In this document: piece by piece, positions 26,641-45,500 of the stretch
How positions within the stretch are numbered: position 1 is the stretch's first letter
Layout of the letters: each line of letters opens with the position of its first letter
Assembly: GCF_032062105.1 (NCBI RefSeq)
Contig: NW_026933969.1
Coordinates: 1 to 64,000 of the forward strand
Source: Saccostrea cucullata
Taxonomy: Eukaryota
Direction of reading: 5' to 3'
DNA: 64,000 nucleotides
The notes under the pieces: generated by a model
Database searches by the model: none
What the model saw: the letters and a program-made list of their open reading frames with translations, nothing else
What the model was told of the DNA's origin: nothing
Program-made: the position numbers and the translations under genes

Positions 26641-27693
26641 ATGGACAAGCAACAGCAAAGGGTCTTTTTAACATTGGATGTAATATTTATGTGTTGGATT
26701 ATTGTTTTCAACATTTCATCAATTGTTGTCATTATACGAAAATCAAAATTGAGGAATCCCAAAAATTACCTGTTAATTTGCCTTGCTTTTTCGGACCTGT
26801 GTATTGGTGTGTTCGTGATACCAAATGTAGTGTTCTTATCGCTTCATAATTCTCCTGTGTCTGCCTTGGTTTGCCAAATGTGTATGTATTCCGAATTCAT
26901 GGCAAAGGTAGCCCATGCGTGTTCGATTGTTGCACTTGCAATAGACCGATTTATAGCAATACAGTTTCCTATGAAGTCAAAGCAACTTAGAACCCAGAGA
27001 AACTATATGTTTGTTGTTGGTGCTATAACCGTTTTCTCTCTCCTGTACGGCATTCGTGGGCCTACCCTTTACAGACAGACAGAAAAAGTCATCCCAAGCC
27101 AGAACAACGGTAACAACACAGTGGTGAAATACCTATGTAAAGTTACAGATGATGTAATTCCCATTCATTTAGGATTTTTGATTGTGGACTTTCTAGTGCT
27201 TTTTCTTCTTCCCGCCATTGTATTAATCATCTCAAATACTGCCGTATCCCGGACGTTAAGCAAGAAAGCAATAACAAGGACCGGAAAGATCCCTCCGCCA
27301 TTACTTGCCACAAGGAAGAAAGCCATGCGTCTTCTGCTTATTATGGTCGCCATCTTCATCATCCTGAACTTTCCACTATGGTATTATCGAATGGCAATGG
27401 ACATTTTTAAGCAGAATATCCCGAATTCCGCAATAGTGAAACACAGTTTTTTGCTTCTAGTTTTCTTTTATAACTGTTCTAATGTGTTCTTTTACGGGAT
27501 GCTGAATAGTGAGTTGCGCATGATGCTGTTTAAGATATTCAATGCGTGTGGACTCTGCCAAGACGTGGATATGTTAAGAAGGTCCAGCTTCATGAGTCAT
27601 TGCTCCTCCAGTAACACAAGTTTATACAACATTTCAAGAAGAAATACGAACTCTTCACTGCGACAGATGACAGTAATTGTTGAGAATACTTAA
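26641..27693 (+). CDS. Class A (rhodopsin-like) orphan GPCR, paralog 2 (350 aa, intronless CDS)
   Basis: Same architecture as paralog 1, with shared blocks (VIPNV.FL.LHNS.VS..CQ.C.Y.E.MA, H.GF..DF..LF..PA, IFI.LNFPL, NVFFY..LN). AATAAA at 28082. Confidence 0.9.
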   Translation: MDKQQQRVFLTLDVIFMCWIIVFNISSIVVIIRKSKLRNPKNYLLICLAFSDLCIGVFVIPNVVFLSLHNSPVSALVCQMCMYSEFMAKVAHACSIVALAIDRFIAIQFPMKSKQLRTQRNYMFVVGAITVFSLLYGIRGPTLYRQTEKVIPSQNNGNNTVVKYLCKVTDDVIPIHLGFLIVDFLVLFLLPAIVLIISNTAVSRTLSKKAITRTGKIPPPLLATRKKAMRLLLIMVAIFIILNFPLWYYRMAMDIFKQNIPNSAIVKHSFLLLVFFYNCSNVFFYGMLNSELRMMLFKIFNACGLCQDVDMLRRSSFMSHCSSSNTSLYNISRRNTNSSLRQMTVIVENT

Positions 27694-33689: not shown

Positions 33690-36600
33690 TTAACCTTTCT
33701 GATCAAACCCATCAGTTCCATCCGGACCACGTGGTTGTCTCAAAATAGCCACAGTACAGTTATTATTCACGTTAAGTCTTCCATCTTCTAGCTGCATCAG
33801 CCTCGGTGGTCTGGAATTAAAAAATAAAATATTTCAAAAAGCAAGGTTCTTAAGAGTCTTACTGGCAAGTGCTGTCTATATAAACAATAACAAGATTCCA
33901 TGGCCACAGTGCTCACATGGATTATCTTGGCCCTGTTATTCTGCTTCAGATTTTTTTCAAATTAACATGTACAGCTGCATTGCTGTGAAAAAAGTTTGAT
34001 TTCTTGTTAGAATATACCTATAAAATTCACTGCTTTCTAGTCCCTCACTTCTTATAATTCCCCAAGTTTCTTCATGTTGGCATCATAAACTGCATCAATG
34101 TCCCGTATTCATGAAAACTCCTTCAAACTTTCATAGCCAAGGACTTTTTTTATATCTTTGCCATTAGGAAACAAACTAACTTTGGTGACCCACTCTCTAC
34201 TGACCTGTTATTAGTCACTGTGACTTCCTCTTTCACTTCTGTTGATGAAGTTGAGCCTAAGATTCTTCTTCTTGCTTCAGCATACTCTGCTTCTCTTTGT
34301 TCCAAAGTCTTTGTAGGTTTGTTATTTGCTCTGCAAATTCAATGAACTCAATATTGAAAATCATTTCAATAAACAGAACATGTAAATACTGATGTACAGG
34401 TACATATGCACCTAAATGAACAAAGGTCGCTTTCCCATGTTTACAATGCATAAACAAATATTACATGTATTCCAAAATTCCAAAGTAGCATAGACTGTTG
34501 GAGAGATAAGACGTGTTTTTATGAGCTCTTATCAATACCTAGCTGATTACTAAAAATTGATAATGGAATAATGGATCTGAGTGGAAGTTCTAGTATTTTT
34601 AAATCATTTTTGAACTCATTTAGTGGATTTTCACAATCTTTTAATGGAAATGATAATGAATTGGACTTAAACCCATCGGCGAATTTACCAGACTTTATTC
34701 AGGTTAAGCTTAACACAGAAAGTGTCACCGTAAACTACGATGACCAGAAGCATGAATTTGTGTTATCCGTGCTTCAGAAATTGCTTTCATTTCATGGGAA
34801 TAATAAGAGGAATGGATGCATTTACAAATCTGTGTGTGATACAGTTACTGTAACTATCTACAGTAGCACACATACCATTCTCATTCAAGGGACTAGAGCG
34901 TTTGAATGGTACAGGAACGACTTTCTGAAAGAAATAAATTGTCAACCAGATATAACCCACAATGACTCTGAAACGGAGTGCAAAATTATTGTTGACCAGC
35001 CGAACTGTACCTCGACCCCACGGCCCTCTAAGAAACTGAATGAATCAAATATTGCGACAGGATGCGGTGGCCATTGTAAGAGTGCAGAAAGCATAAAACA
35101 TCTTTCCGAGACAGTGAAAATGCTCACCAAAGAAGTTGAAATCCTGAAGAAGCAGCTAATGGAAGCAGAACAAGCCAAGCCGCATTCTAATACTTCTACA
35201 CAAACTTGTGGGAAAAAAGTGAAGCAGAAGGAAACTATGACTGAGGGACTCTCTGTAACAAATGGGATTTCAAGGCATACCCAGTGTACAATTACTGTTG
35301 AGAAAAGAACCTCCAGTACCTCAACAGATGCAGATGTCAGTCCCAGTCCTGTGTTGAAAAACACCCAGTCCATCAAGAAAGTGACAAATAAAAAGACAGA
35401 TGCACACATCTCCAAAGAGAGTCAAAATATATCGACCTCTAACAGACAAAACATCATCACAAGAAATTCTCAGCCTCCTGCAAGAGAATATAACGAAATA
35501 CCGGTATCTACACTTGTCATCGGGAGTTCAATTCTTCAAAGAATAAAAACCCGTGGCTTAGATCAAAGTGTGAGAGTAAGTACAAATCGAGGTGCCAGTA
35601 TTGCACACATTCGTTCAAAACTACAAAAGTTTGATGTGTCCTCAATCCAAAATGTTATTATTCAGGCTGGAGGAAATGATATTGCAAATTTCCGTAACAT
35701 TGATGCGATTGAGAACGACTTTGCAGAAATAGTTGCTGATTTAAAAAGAAGAAATCCTAACATTGCAGTGTATCTATCGGAAGTGATTCCAAGACGGGAT
35801 GCAGATGTAACCGAAGTGAATAAGTGCATTAGATATGTTTGTGAGGAGTACGGTGCTGTGTTAATCGAATCGAATAAGTCATTCAAACACTGGAATTCCC
35901 CTTCTTTTTGGAGAGATGGCATTCATTTGTCCGACCGTGGCACTGCTTCGCTTCTCAAGCTCTACAGTACTCATGTGAAAATTCTAAAACATCAAAATTC
36001 CTCAACTGTGCAGAACTGCTACTACTGTGGAGAGCAAGGTCATTCTTCGCGCAACTGCCGACACGGTAACAAAGTAACTTGCTGGTACTGTGGTGAACAT
36101 GGCCACAAGCAGAAATTTTGCACAAAGTAGGATCGCGGCAAAGAAAGCTGTGCCGATTATACGAATTACTGTCCGATTATTAACAATGTCAAAAATTATT
36201 TTCACCCTTTGATTAATGTCTGTTTTGATTGTAATGAATCAATTTGCACCTGTCTTTTGTTCAATGATAACTCAAGTAATTATAGCTTAAAATCTGTAAA
36301 TTCAGATCTATGTAAATCTAAACAGAAAATCCTTTTGAACCAAAATCAAAGAAAACTTTACAATTCCTCTCCAACAACAGACACTCCAAAAAATCATAAC
36401 AAACAAAATGTGTGTGATTCAAAAGTTGGCCTTTTAAAAAAAGGTCTACATTTTGTAAATTTAAATGTTTGTCACATTTTACCGAAGTTAGATGAATTAA
36501 TTTTATTTTTACAGGATCAACAAAATGTTGACATTTTTTCTCTATGTGAAACTTTTCTTGACGAAAATATTAGTGATTGTATTATAAATGTAAATGGATA

Positions 36601-39491
36601 TACTTTTGAAAGAAAAGATAGAAAAGGAAAGGCGGGTGGTGGACTAGTTACATATATTTCAAATGATTTGAAATATAAACGGCGAACTGATTTAGAAATT
36701 AGTAATTTAGAAACATTGTGGCTTGAAATTAATCTTAAGAATTCTAAACCTATACTTTATTGTTCAGTTTACCGTCCACCATCTGCCCCCTCCTGCTGGG
36801 TAGACGATTTTGTTAGAGAGGTTCAGTGCGCTACCTGCTGTGACGATCAGGAAGTGATTATTACAGGTGATTTCAATATAGATATGCTCAAAGACCCCCC
36901 GCAGAGTTGGTCATCTGCAATTGTAGATTTGGGATTAACACAATTAATTAACACCCCAACAAGAATTACCAATAGCTCTAAAACTCTCATTGACCATTTC
37001 TACACTACGCACCCTGCTAACATATGTGAAATATCAGTACCCCCTGTAGCAATGTCTGACCATTATCCAATATGTGCTACCCGAAGATCTAACAGCATGC
37101 AACGCAAAGGCAGACACACTGAAATACAATACCGTGACTTTAAAACCTTTAATGAACATGATTTTTTGCATGATTTAAATAATGCAAATTTTGATGAATT
37201 AATTCTCCTGCATGATCCTGATGAAATTTTAACATATTTTTATGCAATTTTCAATTCTGTACTTAATAAGCATGCGAAAGTTAAAACAAAGCGTGTGAAA
37301 TCAGAAATTCGCACTAAATGGTTAACTCCAGAAATAAATGAGGCTAGGATTAAAAGAGATCAATTCCATAAACAGGGAGACATGGGCAATTTTAGATTTT
37401 GGAGAAACAAGGTCACCTCTCTAATTAATGATGCAAAATCTACATATTATAAGACAGTAATTGAAAATAGTTCTACATCAAAAGAAATGTGGGGTCATTT
37501 AAATCAGCTTTCCTCAAAATCAGATAAATATTCATCCCCTTCCAATATAACTTATAATGGATTAGAATTTGATAATTTAAAAGACATTTCAAATGCTTTT
37601 AATGAGCATTTTGCACATATTCCAAGAAAATTGTTAAATAATCTTTCATTGACTAGTTTTGATTCAGAAAAATTGAAAAGATACACGGAAACAAAACTTG
37701 GAGATCAAGACTTTTTTGAAATTCCATTGATTAATGAAACAAAAGTATTTGATATGTTAAATAGGCTTGACATAAACAAATCTGCTGGCATAGACTTTCT
37801 TGGACCCAGATTACTTAAAATTTCAGCTAGTGTAATATCCAAACCTCTAACACACTTAATAAATTCCAGCATAATCAAGGGGTCCTTTCCTTCACAGTTA
37901 AAAATAGCAAAAGTAACTCCTCTATTTAAAAAGGGTGATAAATCAGACCCAGGAAATTATAGACCAATCTCAATCTTACCAACTATTTCGAAAGTCTTAG
38001 AGAAGCATGTAGCAGAAAATATACGAATCTTTACTTCTCACTATGATTTATTAATGAAAGCACAATCTGGATTTAGAGAATTTCACTCTTGCCAGACAGC
38101 TCTCACAAAACTAACTGATAATTGGCTACATGCAATAGATGAAGGAAATTTCGTTGGCATTACTTATTTGGATTTTAGCAAAGCATTTGATCTCGTAAAT
38201 CATGATATACTTATTACTAAACTTAAATGCTACAACTTTGATCCTATATCGATTCAATGGTTTGAATCATACTTAAATGATCGAACGCAGAGTGTTAAAA
38301 TTGGTGCGTACACATCTGAATCACTGCCTGTCACAGCAGGTGTGCCACAGGGATCTATTTTAGGTCCCTTGTTATTCCTGTTATATATTGCTGATTTACC
38401 ATTATCTGTTGAACATTGTAATATTGATATGTTTGCTGATGACACTACAATGCATTTTCATGGTAACAATATTTCATATATTGAAGCAGCTCTGAATCAA
38501 GACCTTTTTCAAATACAAAACTGGTGTCAACAAAATCAGATGATTTTGAATACGGACAAAACTAAGAGTATGTTAATGGGAACACATCAAAAGAAATCAA
38601 AATTAGAAAACGCTAATCTTCATTTACAACTTTCTGGCCAACCCCTTGAAAATGTTACAACAGAGAAATTATTAGGTGTTCACATTGATCATAATCTTCA
38701 ATTTACTAGTCATGTAGATGCAGTTTGCAAAACTCTTGCTTATAAATTATTTACTCTACGAAAAATTAAGAAGTTCCTTCCATTGCATACTAGAAAGCTA
38801 TTTTATAACGCATTTATTTTACCATCAATTTTATATTGTCTATCTATTTGGGGTAACTCTCCTCAAACTCACATCGATAGAATATACAAACTTCAAAAAC
38901 GAGCAGCTAGGATTATTTTAAATGAAAAATACGATGCACCTTCAATGCCCTTGTTTAACATATTAGGCTGGTTAACAGTTCATGAACTTCTATATTTACA
39001 GAAAAGCATTCTGATGTTCAAAACATTCCATGGTATGTCTCCTGATTATATGCATGATTTGTTTGAATTTCAAAGTTGTGGATCATACACGCTACGCTCA
39101 CAGACAAATTCAGAACTTCGTTTACCAAAATTTAAAACTAATTTATTTAAAAATTCTTTGCAATATTCAGGGGTTATTATATGGAATGAGTTGCCTATTA
39201 GTATAAGGAATTCCCAATCCCTTTCAATATTTAAAAGTAGGGTAGAACATTTTTTACTTATGAAACGTTCTTCATGAAAAAAAAAAAAAAAAAAAAATTT
39301 TCATTCCTCTGAACTTATAATGAAACGAAAGTGTTTAATTTATTCTAGTGTAACATAATGTGTGTTTATATCTTATTGTTCCATGTTTGTGATTATTGTC
39401 TTTATTATTGTATAAAACATTGTATATGTGTTTTTAAGAAGGCCCCGAGGAAGACTAGTGCTCGCACTAATCGGATTACCTTCTATAAATA

Positions 39492-39529
<38 letters not shown>

Positions 39530-42500
39530 CTACACAAAAATACTGTCACATAATAACCCAAATTCCAATTTCAAGTTTCAAATTGTTTTTAAAATTGCCA
39601 ATTTAACTCTGACATAGTTAATTATGGTGTTATCTTTCTGTTTACTATGTCAGTATGTGATAAATTTAAAAGTTTTTTGACCACAGATAAACAAAATTTA
39701 CTTTGTACAGAATAATCAATATGTAAAATATTTTTTCCCCAAGGAAAGAATTCATTTCTCATTTCTGAATTATTTACACAATTTCCAGATTTCTCCACTT
39801 AATTCTTTTCTTCACTTTATAAATGTACTCTACAATAATTTTCAAAGACAAGAAAATTTCTCGCAGGATACATGTAATTGTTTTGACAATCTGACAAGTA
39901 AAATTCACTAATTTTGATAAATCTAATTAAACAGTCAATCTTGCCTTGTCCCTTGGTTTGCTGTAGAATTAGCATCTGATTTCCTTTTTAGTATGCGAAC
40001 CTGTGGAGCATACTGTGTTCTATTTCCATCTTCAACCACAACTGCTTCTGATGCAAGTCTACAAAAAATAAAAAGGCAAACACTGACATTTATTTATTTC
40101 ATTAATAAAACTCATTAATAAAATAAATAAACTGTACCAATACGTTCAAGCAGACATCATGCAACCTTAAAAGATCAGAGACATGCAATATAAAATATAT
40201 TTTATTAGGCCTCTAAGGGTTGTGATATGATGTATATTTTTGTGTTCGTCTCAGTAATGTTGAGTGTCTTATGCTTGAAACTGGAAAGTTCCAAAACGTA
40301 AAAAAAAAAAAAAAACATTTTCTATAACAAAAAAATCTTTCTTTTGGATAGTTAAATTTGGTATAATTTAACAAATTTAAACAGCTCTCTCCAGTTTTAG
40401 ACTAAATTTAAATCATTATAATTAAGAATTCCCTTTCATTACTTTCACAATAATGCACATGAATATACAAGCATAGACAGTCCTAAAAACATTGAAATAT
40501 CTTCTCAGTCCATGTGCACACTGCTAATACAGACTTACTTTTTGGATTCCTTTAATTTCATTTCTTCTAATTTCTTGTCAAGATCCTTTAAAATAAAGAA
40601 AAATTCTGAAATCACAAAATTGTCAGGAAAAAATCCACAGTTGTAACAGTGCATGTCAACATTGTAGACATACAATGTTTATTTGAAGTGAGAATATTAC
40701 AAAAATATGTGCATTTTTCAGAGAAAAATACATCAGGGCTCGACATTAATGCTTGTCCGGTACTGATGAAAAAATTTATGGACAAGTGAATATGCTGGGA
40801 ACTAGTCCAATTGGACAAGTCACTTTAGTGCATTTTAATGTAAAAGTCTCTTTATCATGTTTATAATAAAAAGAACAACTGTTGAAAGTTAATTCGTAGT
40901 TTCAAGTCAGAAGCTGTACATAAACCCAAGCTTCAATTGCTATTAATTGAGATCACATTCAATCAGGATCCAAGTTCACTAACTGCATACTTCTGGAAAG
41001 GCATGGAGCTTACAAAGTTTGGATTCTGTTGGATGTTGACAGGTTCACTTGTGAACATTTATGTTGTTGTCAGGACAGAAAGCCTAGATAAAATTTCATT
41101 TTCTTTTTTTTGTTGTATTTATAAATAATATCATGAATCAATCAAAATTTACAATAATATCACGGATCAATCAAAATTTATTGAAAAATTTTCAGACAAG
41201 TGAAGTTGAAGTTCCGACAAGTTAATGTCTTGCCGAATGGTTACTTGTTTGAATGGACAAGTAGGAAAAAATGTTAATGTAGAGCCCTGTGCATATATAA
41301 CTGCTCCCTATATAACACCTAAAACTTGGTTAATCAATATTTAATTTAATTGATACTTTCAGTTACTTTCCAAAAATCATGACAGAGTAAATCCATTCTC
41401 TTATTTACTAGATTGCAAATATATAGAACATGTTCTGAATGTCAGGGACCAACCTAGACCAAAAATTTAGGGAGACTTCACTTCTCCCTCAGAGAATTTT
41501 AGGGAGAAGTTTCAAATTTTAGGGAGACTTCTCAGCGCGCGCAATGCGCATGAATTATTTAATGAAATTTTAATGTATATTCAACCATTGATTTCTTTGA
41601 AGTATTCCATCATTCTAAACCTATTTAAGGAGACAGAAAATGTAGGTCTTTAAACAATGTATTTAATTATTTTTTCATCAATTAATTAGTCATCAATTCA
41701 TAGCATGAAAATACATTTTTACACAATCCATTTAAATGGCTGTCAACTTGTACAAAATGAGTTTTGAATCAGTATTTACAAATTTTACACATGTACACAT
41801 CATTTCAAAACTTTAAGATTGAAAAAGTTTTCTCTTTTTTTCATCTTTCCAGATTTTCAGAGCCTTAGCAAAGTCAAAGTTTTCAATTGATGGACCATCC
41901 TCTGAAATCCTCATTAAGTCATTCACTGAATTATTATTCAAGTTTGTTCTTAGCCTTGATTTGATCCGATTTTGAGTGGAAAACCCCCTCTCACAGGTAG
42001 CACTGTTCACTGGCAACAGTGTGCAACACTGAACAAGTTTGATGACGTTTGGCAGGATATCCTCATATTCTGAACCAAGTTTCTCACAAACTTCACTCAA
42101 AGAAGATGTTGCGAAAGAGCCTACCACAAGTCTTTTGTACTGTTTGTATTCCATAGGTACTTGATCCGTTTCTATTCCTTGGACAGCAAAATGTTCAGCT
42201 AAAACAGCTACACTTTCATTTCCAAATTTGGCTAACTCTCCTTTTTTGTGAGCTGAAGTGATATGAAGAGGCTGTAACACTTGCATTTTTTCAATTAATC
42301 CACTTTCTTGAAATCTATCTTTCAAATTCTTTACTATGTTGTCCACATATTGTGGCATGATAGATCTGAGAATGTTTCTCTGCTGGGAAAAGAATTTGAC
42401 TTGAACTCCTTGTTGTCCTTCATCTTCATCATCAGAGCTCTCAAATCCATCAAAACCATCAATGTTAGTGTCAATGGCCTCTTGGACAACTGATTTTTTG

Positions 42501-45500
42501 CTTTCACTCTCAGGTCGATTGTACGTTACATCATCCCCATCTATAGTAGTAAATTCCTCAAGTTTATCTACATAGATGCCTTGAGCCTTTTTGAAATCAA
42601 GAAGGGCTTCACAGGTACTTTCCACTATTGGTGTAAGTTTACTCTGGTCCAAGTCCTTGGTTTGGAAAATCCGACTCAATCTACCCAGGAAAGGCAAAAT
42701 GTCCATCAGCATATGAGTAATTGCAATGAAACTGTACTGGGAAACTTCTGCATGAATTCCCCTTGCAGCTGGGTTGGAAGTTCCTTCATGCTCTAGGGCT
42801 ATAAGAAGGGCAGGGTAAGTCCTATAGAGAATTTCAACTGATTTCTGAAGACTTAACCATCTCACAGAGTGAATTTGGGCAAATTTCAGTGTAGGAAGGT
42901 TAAGCAGCATTTGGATTTCTCGCAGCTTATTTGATCGTAGTGCAGATCCACTGAAATAAAAGAAAATGTTTGACACTGTATCAGAGTATTTTTTCAGTTG
43001 AGGAATACATTTTGATGCTTGTGAGGCAGCAAGGGCACATCGGTGTGCAGCGCAGTGAATCCCGACTAAAGCTGGGCTGTATTCTTTGAGCCTCACAATT
43101 ACTCCATTTTTCCTTCCTGTCATGACGCTGGCTCCATCAGTTCCAACACCAACAAGTTTTGACACATCTAGGCCCTTAACTCTCAGCTCTGAAATCACAT
43201 GACTAACTATGGTCTCTGCATCTGCCTTGGGTGTAGAAATTTCTATGTTGCTTAGAAACCGTGTTTCCAGTTGTCTCTCCTGCAGGTAGTGAGCATAGAC
43301 GAGGAGACGTTTTCGATTTCCCCGGTCTGTGCTTTCATCCAGTGTTAAAGAAAAGATGCCAGAGTTTGTGATATTTTCAACTAGATCGAGTGATATAACT
43401 TTAGCACATGCACTCTGAAATTCTCCAACACTTTTGGAACTGGTGTAAGAAAGTTCTTCTTTCAGTGTTTGGCTCCCTATTTCACCCATTAAACTAATGA
43501 TGTATGGAAATTCTTCCTTAGGTAGCTCTCTCTTGGCAAGGAAATAGGCACACTTAATGTAATGGGTGATGAGTTGCTCATCTTTGTCAAGCTTACTGGC
43601 TAGTAGCTTCTGGAGTGGTTGCTGTTTGGCCAGTTTGGACTTTGTAATGGCAGTCAAGTGGAGCTGAGCTGAAATAAAATTGTTGAAAAGTTATTATTTT
43701 TTAATTCTGTTCTTACATTGAGCTTAATTTTTTTTCCAGAGTGGTCATTTGAAATCTTGCTAAAAATAACAAAGTTAATGTATGAAAAATAAAATTATTG
43801 ATATTAAAAATTGTTCAGAAAAAAATATCTATTTTAAGTACAGACACTAATTAACTGTACAAAAAATAAAATTTTAAGGGTTTTATCTCAGAAAGTATTT
43901 AAGCGAAGTTTTTATTTTATGCAAAAATAAAATATTAACAAAAAATTCAATAAAACATAAAAACTTACAGGACGCATGTCGCATATGGTTCGTTGTTTTC
44001 GCTGGCTTTTCATGACCATGTGCGTATGGATTGTCCAAACCTGCAGCTCTACACAATGTACAGTGCCACTTTTTTTCAGAATCCAATTCATACCATTCAA
44101 ATGCATTTTGTGTGATTTCTTTAGCAAACTTCTTTCTTGGAGATTGGATTACATTTTCGTCTTGTAACTTTCGCTTACTTCCGGGTTTCGGCGAACCGCC
44201 TGTCAGCCACGCTTGTAACGACATTTATTCTTTCTTGTTCAATTTTCTCTTGTGCTCGTTTATACAATAATGATTTTTTATTTTTAGCACATATATATAT
44301 TTATAAATGAAAACAAAGGACAATAAATATATCAATTTATTATGTCAATATGTGTATACTTCATACTGCCGATCGAGCGATTTCATGTCTTGGACAGTCC
44401 AGTCCAATACGAAAAATCGTAATATTACTAAAATTCGTAATATAAGCAATTTCTAACTCTTATAAGAGTTACTTCCCTTTTTTCTGATACAATATCTTTG
44501 TTATGTTTCATCAGAGATTATATGTGTCTGGTTTTATCATCGTGGATATGTATGGTTAGTGCATTTTCTTTGTTTTTGTGCATTCGATCCAAGTGCAAGC
44601 AGATTCAGAGCCTAGTGAGAGTCTTACAAGTTATCTCTCGTAACATCTCGTTATTTGAGATGAGGGTCTGATTTTCAGGGTAGACTTCGGGAAAAAAATA
44701 GGGAATTCGGGGATTATAGACCACTGTGACAAGCTTGAGGATACATTGAAATTTTATGGAAAATTGTTCCCAACCTTGGGAAAATTCTTATATAAGAATA
44801 ATAAAACAAAATGTTCACTCACCCATTACAATTGTTACTTTCTTCTTGCTTTTCCATACTTTTCAATAGACGTCACTGACCAAGATGACCACGTGATACT
44901 AGTACCATTGGGGCATAATGTATTTCTGACGTCATACTTCCCTAAACATCATTCAGTTTTTTTCAATGCTTAATTTTGTCTTGCATTACGAAAACTTGTA
45001 ATATATTCTCTCTCAACTTGCTATATTATGAGTTTCAGTAATTTAACTATATTACGAAAAATAGTAATATAAGAATAATATTACAATATTCTGTAATATT
45101 ACGATTTCTTGTAATATTACTATATTTCGTAACATTACGATTTTTCGTATTGGACTGGACTGTTGGATGTTGACATGTGTATAGTAAACGGTACATTTTG
45201 ACAATAAAATTCTTGATATGCGACTGTATTTATGACATGAGTGTAATATGCAGTTAATTTAAAAGTCTAAAAATCGTCTTCAACAACTTTGACATCATAT
45301 CGATAGCTGGTCAGGTGTTTTTCGTCTCTTGTGTATTATTTCCACTTACAGACTTTTTCATATGTTAAAGCGTAAATTTTAGAGGTGTTCCGACGGAGTA
45401 TTCGCTCAGTGGCCAGTAGCAGTGAAACAGATGCAAGCGCCCTGCTGTGATTCATGTTACTTCAACGGTGAAAAACACCATAAATTTTTCTTAAAGACAG

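Follow-up and report, generated by a model that had tools for sequence, protein, structure and literature searches.

A single in-frame UAG, conserved between ORF1 and ORF2 of a Saccostrea LINE and its relatives, is a candidate site of programmed readthrough

We analysed a stretch of 64,000 nucleotides of the Saccostrea cucullata genome (the window; NCBI RefSeq assembly GCF_032062105.1, contig NW_026933969.1, positions 1 to 64,000 of the forward strand), which holds an intact, full-length copy of a long interspersed nuclear element (LINE) of about 5 kb. The first open reading frame (ORF1) of this element encodes an esterase followed by two zinc knuckles, the second (ORF2) an apurinic-type (APE) endonuclease and a reverse transcriptase (RT), and both lie in one reading frame that is broken by a single TAG. 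The same junction recurs in a clade of related LINEs, and judging from sequence comparison we consider it likely, with a probability of roughly 0.7, that this clade expresses its endonuclease-RT by programmed readthrough of the one conserved UAG. The junction is real, clade-wide and selected: the frame is shared, the stop is fixed, the spacer behind it is selected as protein, the nucleotides following the stop are constrained and ORF2 lacks a common start codon.

In the window copy, ORF1 (34571..36130, + strand; 519 amino acids, ATG at 34571) ends with ACA-AAG-TAG, two codons after the end of the second CCHC knuckle. Beyond the TAG at 36128-36130 the frame stays open from 36131 to a TGA at 39275-39277, that is for 1,048 codons, and a product running through the stop would comprise 1,568 residues (519+1+1,048). 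The +4 base is G, and this TAG-G (36128..36131, +) is the sole in-frame stop and, by comparison of copies and representatives, the candidate readthrough site. The sequence and the list of open reading frames thus bear out what a preliminary description of this DNA had read from the letters, namely the end of ORF1, the open frame up to 39277, the UAG-G context and the length of the fusion.

Further copies came from a DNA search of the same genome (best 40 of 84 candidates scored) and from an ORF1 protein search (best 150 of 722 candidates scored, 52-100% identity). The copy set comprised 60 loci from both searches and 60 stretches from the ORF1 protein list, long open ORF1s being favoured. A pattern recovered the second knuckle in 114 of the 120 loci, always 2 or 4 codons 5' of the TAG; among the six loci missed by the pattern, three show the TAG and three start 3' of the junction. 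Removal of duplicates left 93 distinct copies. For the spacer analysis, representatives were drawn from intact copies with a locatable endonuclease start, 20 from the own genome and 10 from outside. A motif derived from the junction and requiring the TAG matched the genome 215 times, compared with two matches for the reversed control.

All 93 distinct copies with a readable second knuckle carry TAG followed by a purine (TAG-G in 78, TAG-A in 15) and none has a sense codon at the stop, so that the conservation of the TAG proposed for checking in the preliminary description holds across copies. Among 34 family representatives, which span about 40-97% endonuclease identity and include other hosts (about 40%), 33 have TAG and 30 TAG-G. 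The terminator of ORF2 itself is TGA in seven and TAA in seven of 14 complete ORF2s and never TAG; an ordinary stop therefore does turn over in these elements. A host code reading TAG as sense was considered and ruled out, as 25 copies run at least 900 codons past the TAG without any stop. In two distant elements the context differs, with TAG-CAA-ATA in L129 and TGA-CAA-TTA in L135, both near the Type I readthrough context (PMC3159437; here and below, statements on published work refer to excerpts of the papers cited). L135 (L135:1384-2026) is an esterase LINE without knuckles or Cys motif, in which 214 open codons lead from TGA-CAA-TTA to the endonuclease; its ATG at codon 13 would allow a restart. 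L135 is a single copy; the similar L137 carries a frameshift and another stop context.

The spacer between the stop and the endonuclease is open and in frame. That of the window copy (36131..36457, +; 109 codons, 327 nucleotides, without ATG) would be expected to contain 7.2 stops, and only two of 300 shuffles were open. None of the 30 representatives has an in-frame stop in its spacer of 162-654 nucleotides, as against 3.5-16.9 stops in dinucleotide shuffles and 4-32 in the other two frames. The preliminary description had named frameshifts or extra stops in the spacer as signs against its reading; among 81 copies whose endonuclease start could be located, the frame is kept in 68 and shifted in 13, and 65 of the 68 in-frame spacers are stop-free (28 of the 68 without ATG before the endonuclease). 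In 13 partly overlapping pairs the ratio of non-synonymous to synonymous divergence (dN/dS) comes to 0.39 between the stop and a Cys motif (80 synonymous differences in 315 sites, 131 non-synonymous in 1,179 sites) and 0.57 in the linker, compared with 0.20 in both esterase and APE. The spacer is thus under purifying selection as protein. Alignment gaps in the spacers were multiples of three in 30 cases and not in 30; because nucleotide gap lengths include compensating gaps in divergent alignments, only net spacer lengths were used. In L074 and L177, which by eye appear to be recombinants with a crossover in the spacer, ORF1 and endonuclease come from different families and the frame is kept.

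The Cys motif (C-x2-C-x(2-6)-C-x-C; 36221..36253, +) is kept in 31 of 33 representatives and is always in frame, its distance from the stop taking 12 values between 13 and 39 codons; it is possibly a zinc site. It had no Pfam match, and an ESM Atlas search with the spacer gave a best score of 0.76 and no family. In L122 and L123 the motif is present as three tandem repeats.

ORF2 has no shared start codon. Its first in-frame ATG in the window copy (36884, codon 252), correctly located by the preliminary description, lies inside the endonuclease, past the NLN, CETF, YRPP and GDFN motifs and six codons past the start of the last, so that in-frame AUG initiation would miss most of the endonuclease. 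An ATG in the spacer consensus had been suggested as evidence against readthrough, and the window subfamily has none before the endonuclease. In the representatives such an ATG is absent in 13 of 30 and elsewhere wanders from codon 8 to beyond codon 100. Extending the search to ATG, CTG, GTG, TTG and ACG before the Cys motif left 15 of 31 representatives without any, ATG being present in only one of 31. Codons 1-4 after the stop contain no ATG in any of the 34 junctions and no common start-like codon, and an AUG at the ORF1 stop in the ORF2 frame, as in SART1-type stop-start coupling, occurs at none of them. An out-of-frame ATG at +11 was rejected as a start since it is not conserved; the window copy lacks it, as do many families. 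In databases, the ORF2 proteins predicted for relatives begin at scattered Met codons, several within the endonuclease, and the arrangement described here explains why gene callers start these proteins in this way.

The nucleotides behind the stop are constrained beyond their coding function. GGC (+7 to +9) and GCC-G (+22 to +25) are invariant at four-fold degenerate sites in all 20 own-genome representatives, in a codon background in which GGC makes up 14% of 533 Gly codons and GCC 17% of 548 Ala codons, and only three of 29 comparable four-fold columns are invariant. Both triplets are present in 27 of the 34 junctions, with a loop of 6 nucleotides in outside families versus 12; as the loop length varies by 6 nucleotides, translation appears to cover codon 4 onward. 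The first 30 nucleotides from the stop form the most stable window between -150 and +220 (mean -5.9 versus at most -4.3 kcal/mol), with a mean folding z of -1.44 versus -0.27, -0.08 and +0.24 in control windows. The nucleotide constraint is solid, and an RNA hairpin as its cause is plausible from conservation and folding. In the window copy the candidate stimulator spans 36136..36155 (+), GGC at 36137-39 facing GCC at 36152-54. The arms proposed in the preliminary description, cggca (36136-40) and tgccg (36151-55), do pair in the predicted fold (-8.4 kcal/mol), but for this copy alone the hairpin is within the range of chance (z -1.5; an equally good fold arose in 20 of 200 dinucleotide shuffles, and longer windows have z about 0). 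The extension of the stem by gat/att that had also been proposed is not conserved, the outer pairs past the first holding in 7 of 27 and 12 of 27, and what the junctions share is a stem of 3-4 bp, kept in 27 of the 34 with little covariation. A scan of Rfam with the element returned no matches. Long-range pairing was examined as well; the best duplex lies near the YRPP codons in several families, its register differs, and it was rejected as a chance pairing of G-rich with C-rich sequence.

Relatives in other hosts show how far the arrangement extends. Protein records named ORF1 homologues from Mytilus and Patella, which end 4-6 residues past the second knuckle, and ORF2 homologues from Saccostrea, Pinctada and Mactra. 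A metagenome scan yielded 37 loci, 13 of them with a readable in-frame junction. Twelve of these are TAG (L121-L127, L129-L132, L136) and the remaining one is L135. Ten of the twelve TAG loci are stop-free to the endonuclease, in L126 the frame is open as far as the contig reaches, and in L131 it breaks 54 codons on. L128, L133, L134, L137, L138 and L150 are truncated, disrupted or of another build, and the remaining 18 loci had no APE or RT match. A scan of a genome collection added L178, with an esterase ORF1, TAG-G and 88 open codons before the APE domain, and a counter-example, L179, whose esterase ORF1 (584-2626) overlaps the ORF2 frame (2473 onward) by about 150 nucleotides in another phase, with in-frame ATGs. 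Because L179 is built otherwise, the TAG arrangement marks a clade and not every esterase LINE. In RT and APE trees, composed of unnamed rows only, the TAG elements occupy several long, separate branches. Viral contigs were searched with two alignments of these elements, and neither found a match. L178, L179, L180, P0020, P0034 and P0048 are LINE sequences in assemblies labelled bacterial or archaeal, probably host or eukaryote contamination, and L056, L057 and L058 have a common insertion between the two knuckles.

We infer from these observations that the UAG is probably read through. Ribosomes would start at the ORF1 AUG (34571), and most would stop at the UAG to give the 519-residue esterase-knuckle protein. 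In a minority of them a near-cognate tRNA would supply an amino acid at the UAG, and translation would proceed into the 1,568-residue fusion of ORF1p, Cys motif, linker, APE endonuclease and RT, which would be the working enzyme. The rate would be set by the UAG-purine context and, in most families, by the short GC hairpin about six bases downstream. Readthrough is preferred because one rule covers translation from about codon 4, the missing shared start and the fixed phase and identity of the stop; a restart that needs no start codon would account for the first two of these and leave the fixed TAG unexplained. Of the features of Type III readthrough the junction has a single in-frame UAG-G. 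As to a downstream RNA structure, it shows a three-bp invariant stem and a folding peak, little covariation and no supported long-range partner. The interpretation offered by the preliminary description is in this respect supported at the sequence level, and the sequence features it had named against itself were all sought and none held.

Several points weigh on the other side. An ATG is present at codon 8 in L129 and at codon 13 in L135. The conserved stem has only 3-4 bp, with no variation at its three core pairs. Of the flanking pairs, the first one outward is kept in 18 of 27 (once by a change on both sides) and the others in 7-12 of 27; in 7 of 26 folds the stem forms with a probability of less than 0.1, and 7 of the 34 junctions lack the GGC/GCC hairpin altogether. 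The representatives were chosen intact and are mutually related, and counts among them are not independent events. A natural single-ORF relative with a sense codon was not found, and longer fused homologues numbered 0 among 391 candidates in what was a weak search. In Candida Tca2, a gag-UGA-pol junction with a predicted pseudoknot gave no readthrough in a reporter (PMC2194720), and since that similar-looking junction failed we hold our confidence at the level given above. Initiation of L1 ORF2 has been described as unconventional and not dependent on its AUG (PMC5009743), and according to one paper ORF1 functions need to be made separately from ORF2p (PMC3708506).

The strongest competitor, which we nevertheless rate as unlikely, is termination followed by reinitiation without a start codon: the UAG would end ORF1p, the hairpin would hold the ribosome, and a restart within the first three or four codons would give a separate ORF2p. 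Precedents exist, as coupling in SART1 depends on RNA structure 3' of the ORF1 stop and reinitiation in L1 is unconventional (PMC5972666, PMC10275272), and the open, selected spacer fits a restart equally well. The junction of the sister element L179, with its other-phase overlap and in-frame ATGs, means that separate initiation exists nearby on the tree. A restart, however, predicts neither an invariant TAG, given the free turnover of ORF2's stop, nor a fixed zero phase between stop and restart, and no common AUG or near-cognate codon is available in codons 1-4 or before the Cys motif. A shorter RNA from an internal promoter, or ribosomes entering internally at a non-AUG codon close to the hairpin, could likewise supply ORF2, the constraint after the stop being then a promoter or entry element. 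The Tca2 junction carries a weak promoter (PMC2194720), and the conservation of GGC, GAA and GCCG could be linear and not structural, but the invariance of the TAG and its zero phase with ORF1 would go unexplained and a common start codon is again missing, which makes this route very improbable. Least probable by far is that the TAG arose by nonsense mutation in an element with one ORF, or that two frames line up by accident in a single copy. Single LINE copies often carry stops, but this reading is refuted by the recurrence of the TAG in all 93 distinct copies and in elements of other hosts, and the Mytilus and Patella ORF1 proteins also end just past the second knuckle.

It is also improbable, if slightly less so than internal initiation, that the stop is removed from the RNA, either by splicing with TAG/G as the 3' acceptor or by ADAR editing of UAG to UIG (Trp). 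TAG/G matches the core of a splice acceptor and UAG is a favoured ADAR triplet, which speaks for both variants. A Saccostrea gene model (P0025) moreover joins esterase to endonuclease as splicing would, though without the knuckles and the first part of the endonuclease; its RT is nearly identical to the own-genome family L107, the joint falls in mid-endonuclease, and it is probably a prediction artefact or a deleted copy. The acceptor reading fits poorly with an A at position -5 in 22 of 30 and with the lack of a continuous pyrimidine tract. Spliced genomic copies, which a spliced transcript would be expected to leave behind, were not found: the junction motif without the TAG requirement had 248 matches, 215 of them with TAG and about 21 expected by chance, and ten non-TAG matches examined comprised six unrelated sequences, one 5'-truncated copy and three decayed copies whose stop site reads TAA or TTG or is frameshifted, none of them spliced. 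As for editing, no duplex partner of a 27-mer centred on the stop is conserved, and in none of 33 cases did this 27-mer score above all 15 controls. RNA reads from three raw-read runs and one contig run contained no joint, at a junction depth of only about 0.6-2.4 (raw-read), too shallow to judge splicing or editing.

From its domain content and general features of the group we place the element tentatively in the CR1/L2 group (Jockey superfamily). The copy (34490..39529, +; APE-RT type, CR1/L2-like), its ends set by blastn against other copies, shows the LINE hallmarks of APE followed by RT in ORF2, dispersed copies, 5' truncations and a 3' repeat tail. ORF1p contains an SGNH/GDSL esterase domain (35585..35941, +; Pfam Lipase_GDSL_2, E 5.9e-11) with invariant GSS, G, GGND and DGIH blocks in the ORF1 alignment, and the esterase profile matches the 'ORF1-encoded protein' PDB 4c1b at 3.9e-8. 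With its catalytic blocks this is the esterase of a Type IV ORF1; that type is described as having no structural RNA-binding domain (PMC3905857), and here two CCHC knuckles follow 3' of the esterase (36014..36121, +; the first by Pfam zf-CCHC, E 2.1e-6, the second by sequence reading), whose profile matches retroviral nucleocapsid chains at 1e-7 to 1e-6. ORF2 contains the APE endonuclease (36482..37063, +; Exo_endo_phos, E 6.2e-12) and the RT (37940..38653, +; RVT_1, E 4.9e-32); its Pfam matches (only Exo_endo_phos, Exo_endo_phos_2 and RVT_1) include no RNase H domain. A 3' terminal segment common to distant families (39437..39529, +; sequence and blastn) ends with AATAAA and a (TAT)n tail. 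Upstream, a two-codon upstream ORF (ATG GAA TAA, 34563-34573) overlaps the ORF1 start as TAATG; ATG-GAA/GAT stands shortly 5' of ORF1 in L074, L077, L099, L102 and L110 and is missing in some families.

Two exon-like stretches of a SUZ-domain host gene flank the LINE, which is antisense to them: a SUZ exon at 34183-34332 (-; Pfam SUZ, E 1.9e-9) and an upstream exon read by eye at about 39920-40060 (-). Other ORFs of the window encode a hAT-like transposase (41816-43690, -), a galactosyltransferase (58456-59475, -) and rhodopsin-family GPCRs (19930-20925, + and 26590-27690, +).

Readthrough between a knuckle protein and an RT is established in gammaretroviruses. The present junction resembles their gag-pol in its single frame, its UAG-G, the zinc-knuckle protein upstream and RT downstream, and a candidate RNA structure a few bases past the stop. 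In murine leukaemia virus (MuLV), the Type III case, UAG-G is followed by a pseudoknot after an 8-nucleotide spacer (PMC3159437). Unlike MuLV, the element is a non-LTR (long terminal repeat) retrotransposon without protease, integrase or LTR, its hairpin has 3-4 bp about six nucleotides past the stop with no pseudoknot found, and its readthrough is a prediction from sequence. Stop readthrough was suggested earlier for Group 3 of the Paramecium germline non-LTR retrotransposons (PMC5405496), a separate ciliate clade; the suggestion rests on consensus sequences, without analysis of stop context, selection or structure in the excerpts of that paper.

In its SGNH esterase ORF1p, APE-RT ORF2 and tandem-repeat 3' tail the element is like esterase CR1/L2 elements such as ZfL2-1 (PMC3905857, PMC4120745; PDB 4c1b). 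According to these papers, esterase ORF1ps carry no structural RNA-binding domain and, in the Jockey superfamily, are confined to vertebrates (PMC3905857, PMC4120745), unlike the two knuckles past the esterase and the invertebrate host found here; the excerpts of these two papers contain no esterase ORF1 with two knuckles, and the wording 'stop codon' is absent from their main text. SART1 (UAAUG stop-start) and mammalian L1 also have a bicistronic LINE RNA, in SART1 with structure 3' of the ORF1 stop (PMC5972666, PMC10275272), but in both an ORF2 AUG stands at the junction or close to it and ORF2p is made as a separate protein, whereas here a common AUG is lacking and the stop keeps its phase and identity. 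Candida Tca2 likewise is a retrotransposon with two ORFs split by one in-frame stop, though an LTR element with UGA, whose junction alone was inactive in the yeast reporter (PMC2194720). LINEs with 2A/StopGo peptides (CR1, L2, Crack, Rex1 and Ingi clades) are a case of virus-like translational recoding in APE-type elements, there by a peptide signal, with no stop codon and in mostly single-ORF elements (PMC3708506).

LINE ORF2 translation has been called unclear (PMC3708506), and the tested cases in reviews are reinitiation in SART1 and L1 (PMC5972666, PMC10275272) and 2A skipping in CR1, L2 and related clades (PMC3708506). A full-text literature search, which covered the main text of papers, found no report of readthrough in an animal LINE. 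Most likely, therefore, we are dealing with a known kind of recoding in an element class where that search found it suggested once, in Paramecium, and never tested. We lean towards the broader view that a widespread invertebrate LINE clade makes its RT only as a Gag-Pol-like fusion by UAG readthrough, with a compact signal (UAG-purine and a GC hairpin at +7) and branch-specific contexts (UAG-G, UAG-CAA, UGA-CAA-UUA). The clade offers a directly testable third route for LINE ORF2 translation, with many natural variants of one short signal. If readthrough holds, an ORF1p-ORF2p fusion can be a working LINE enzyme, against the view that ORF1p must be separate, and an animal host would provide a readthrough element that is very small and evolved naturally. 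In that case LINEs would have arrived independently at what retroviruses do, setting the ratio of ORF1p to RT and tethering the RT to the ribonucleoprotein, without a protease.

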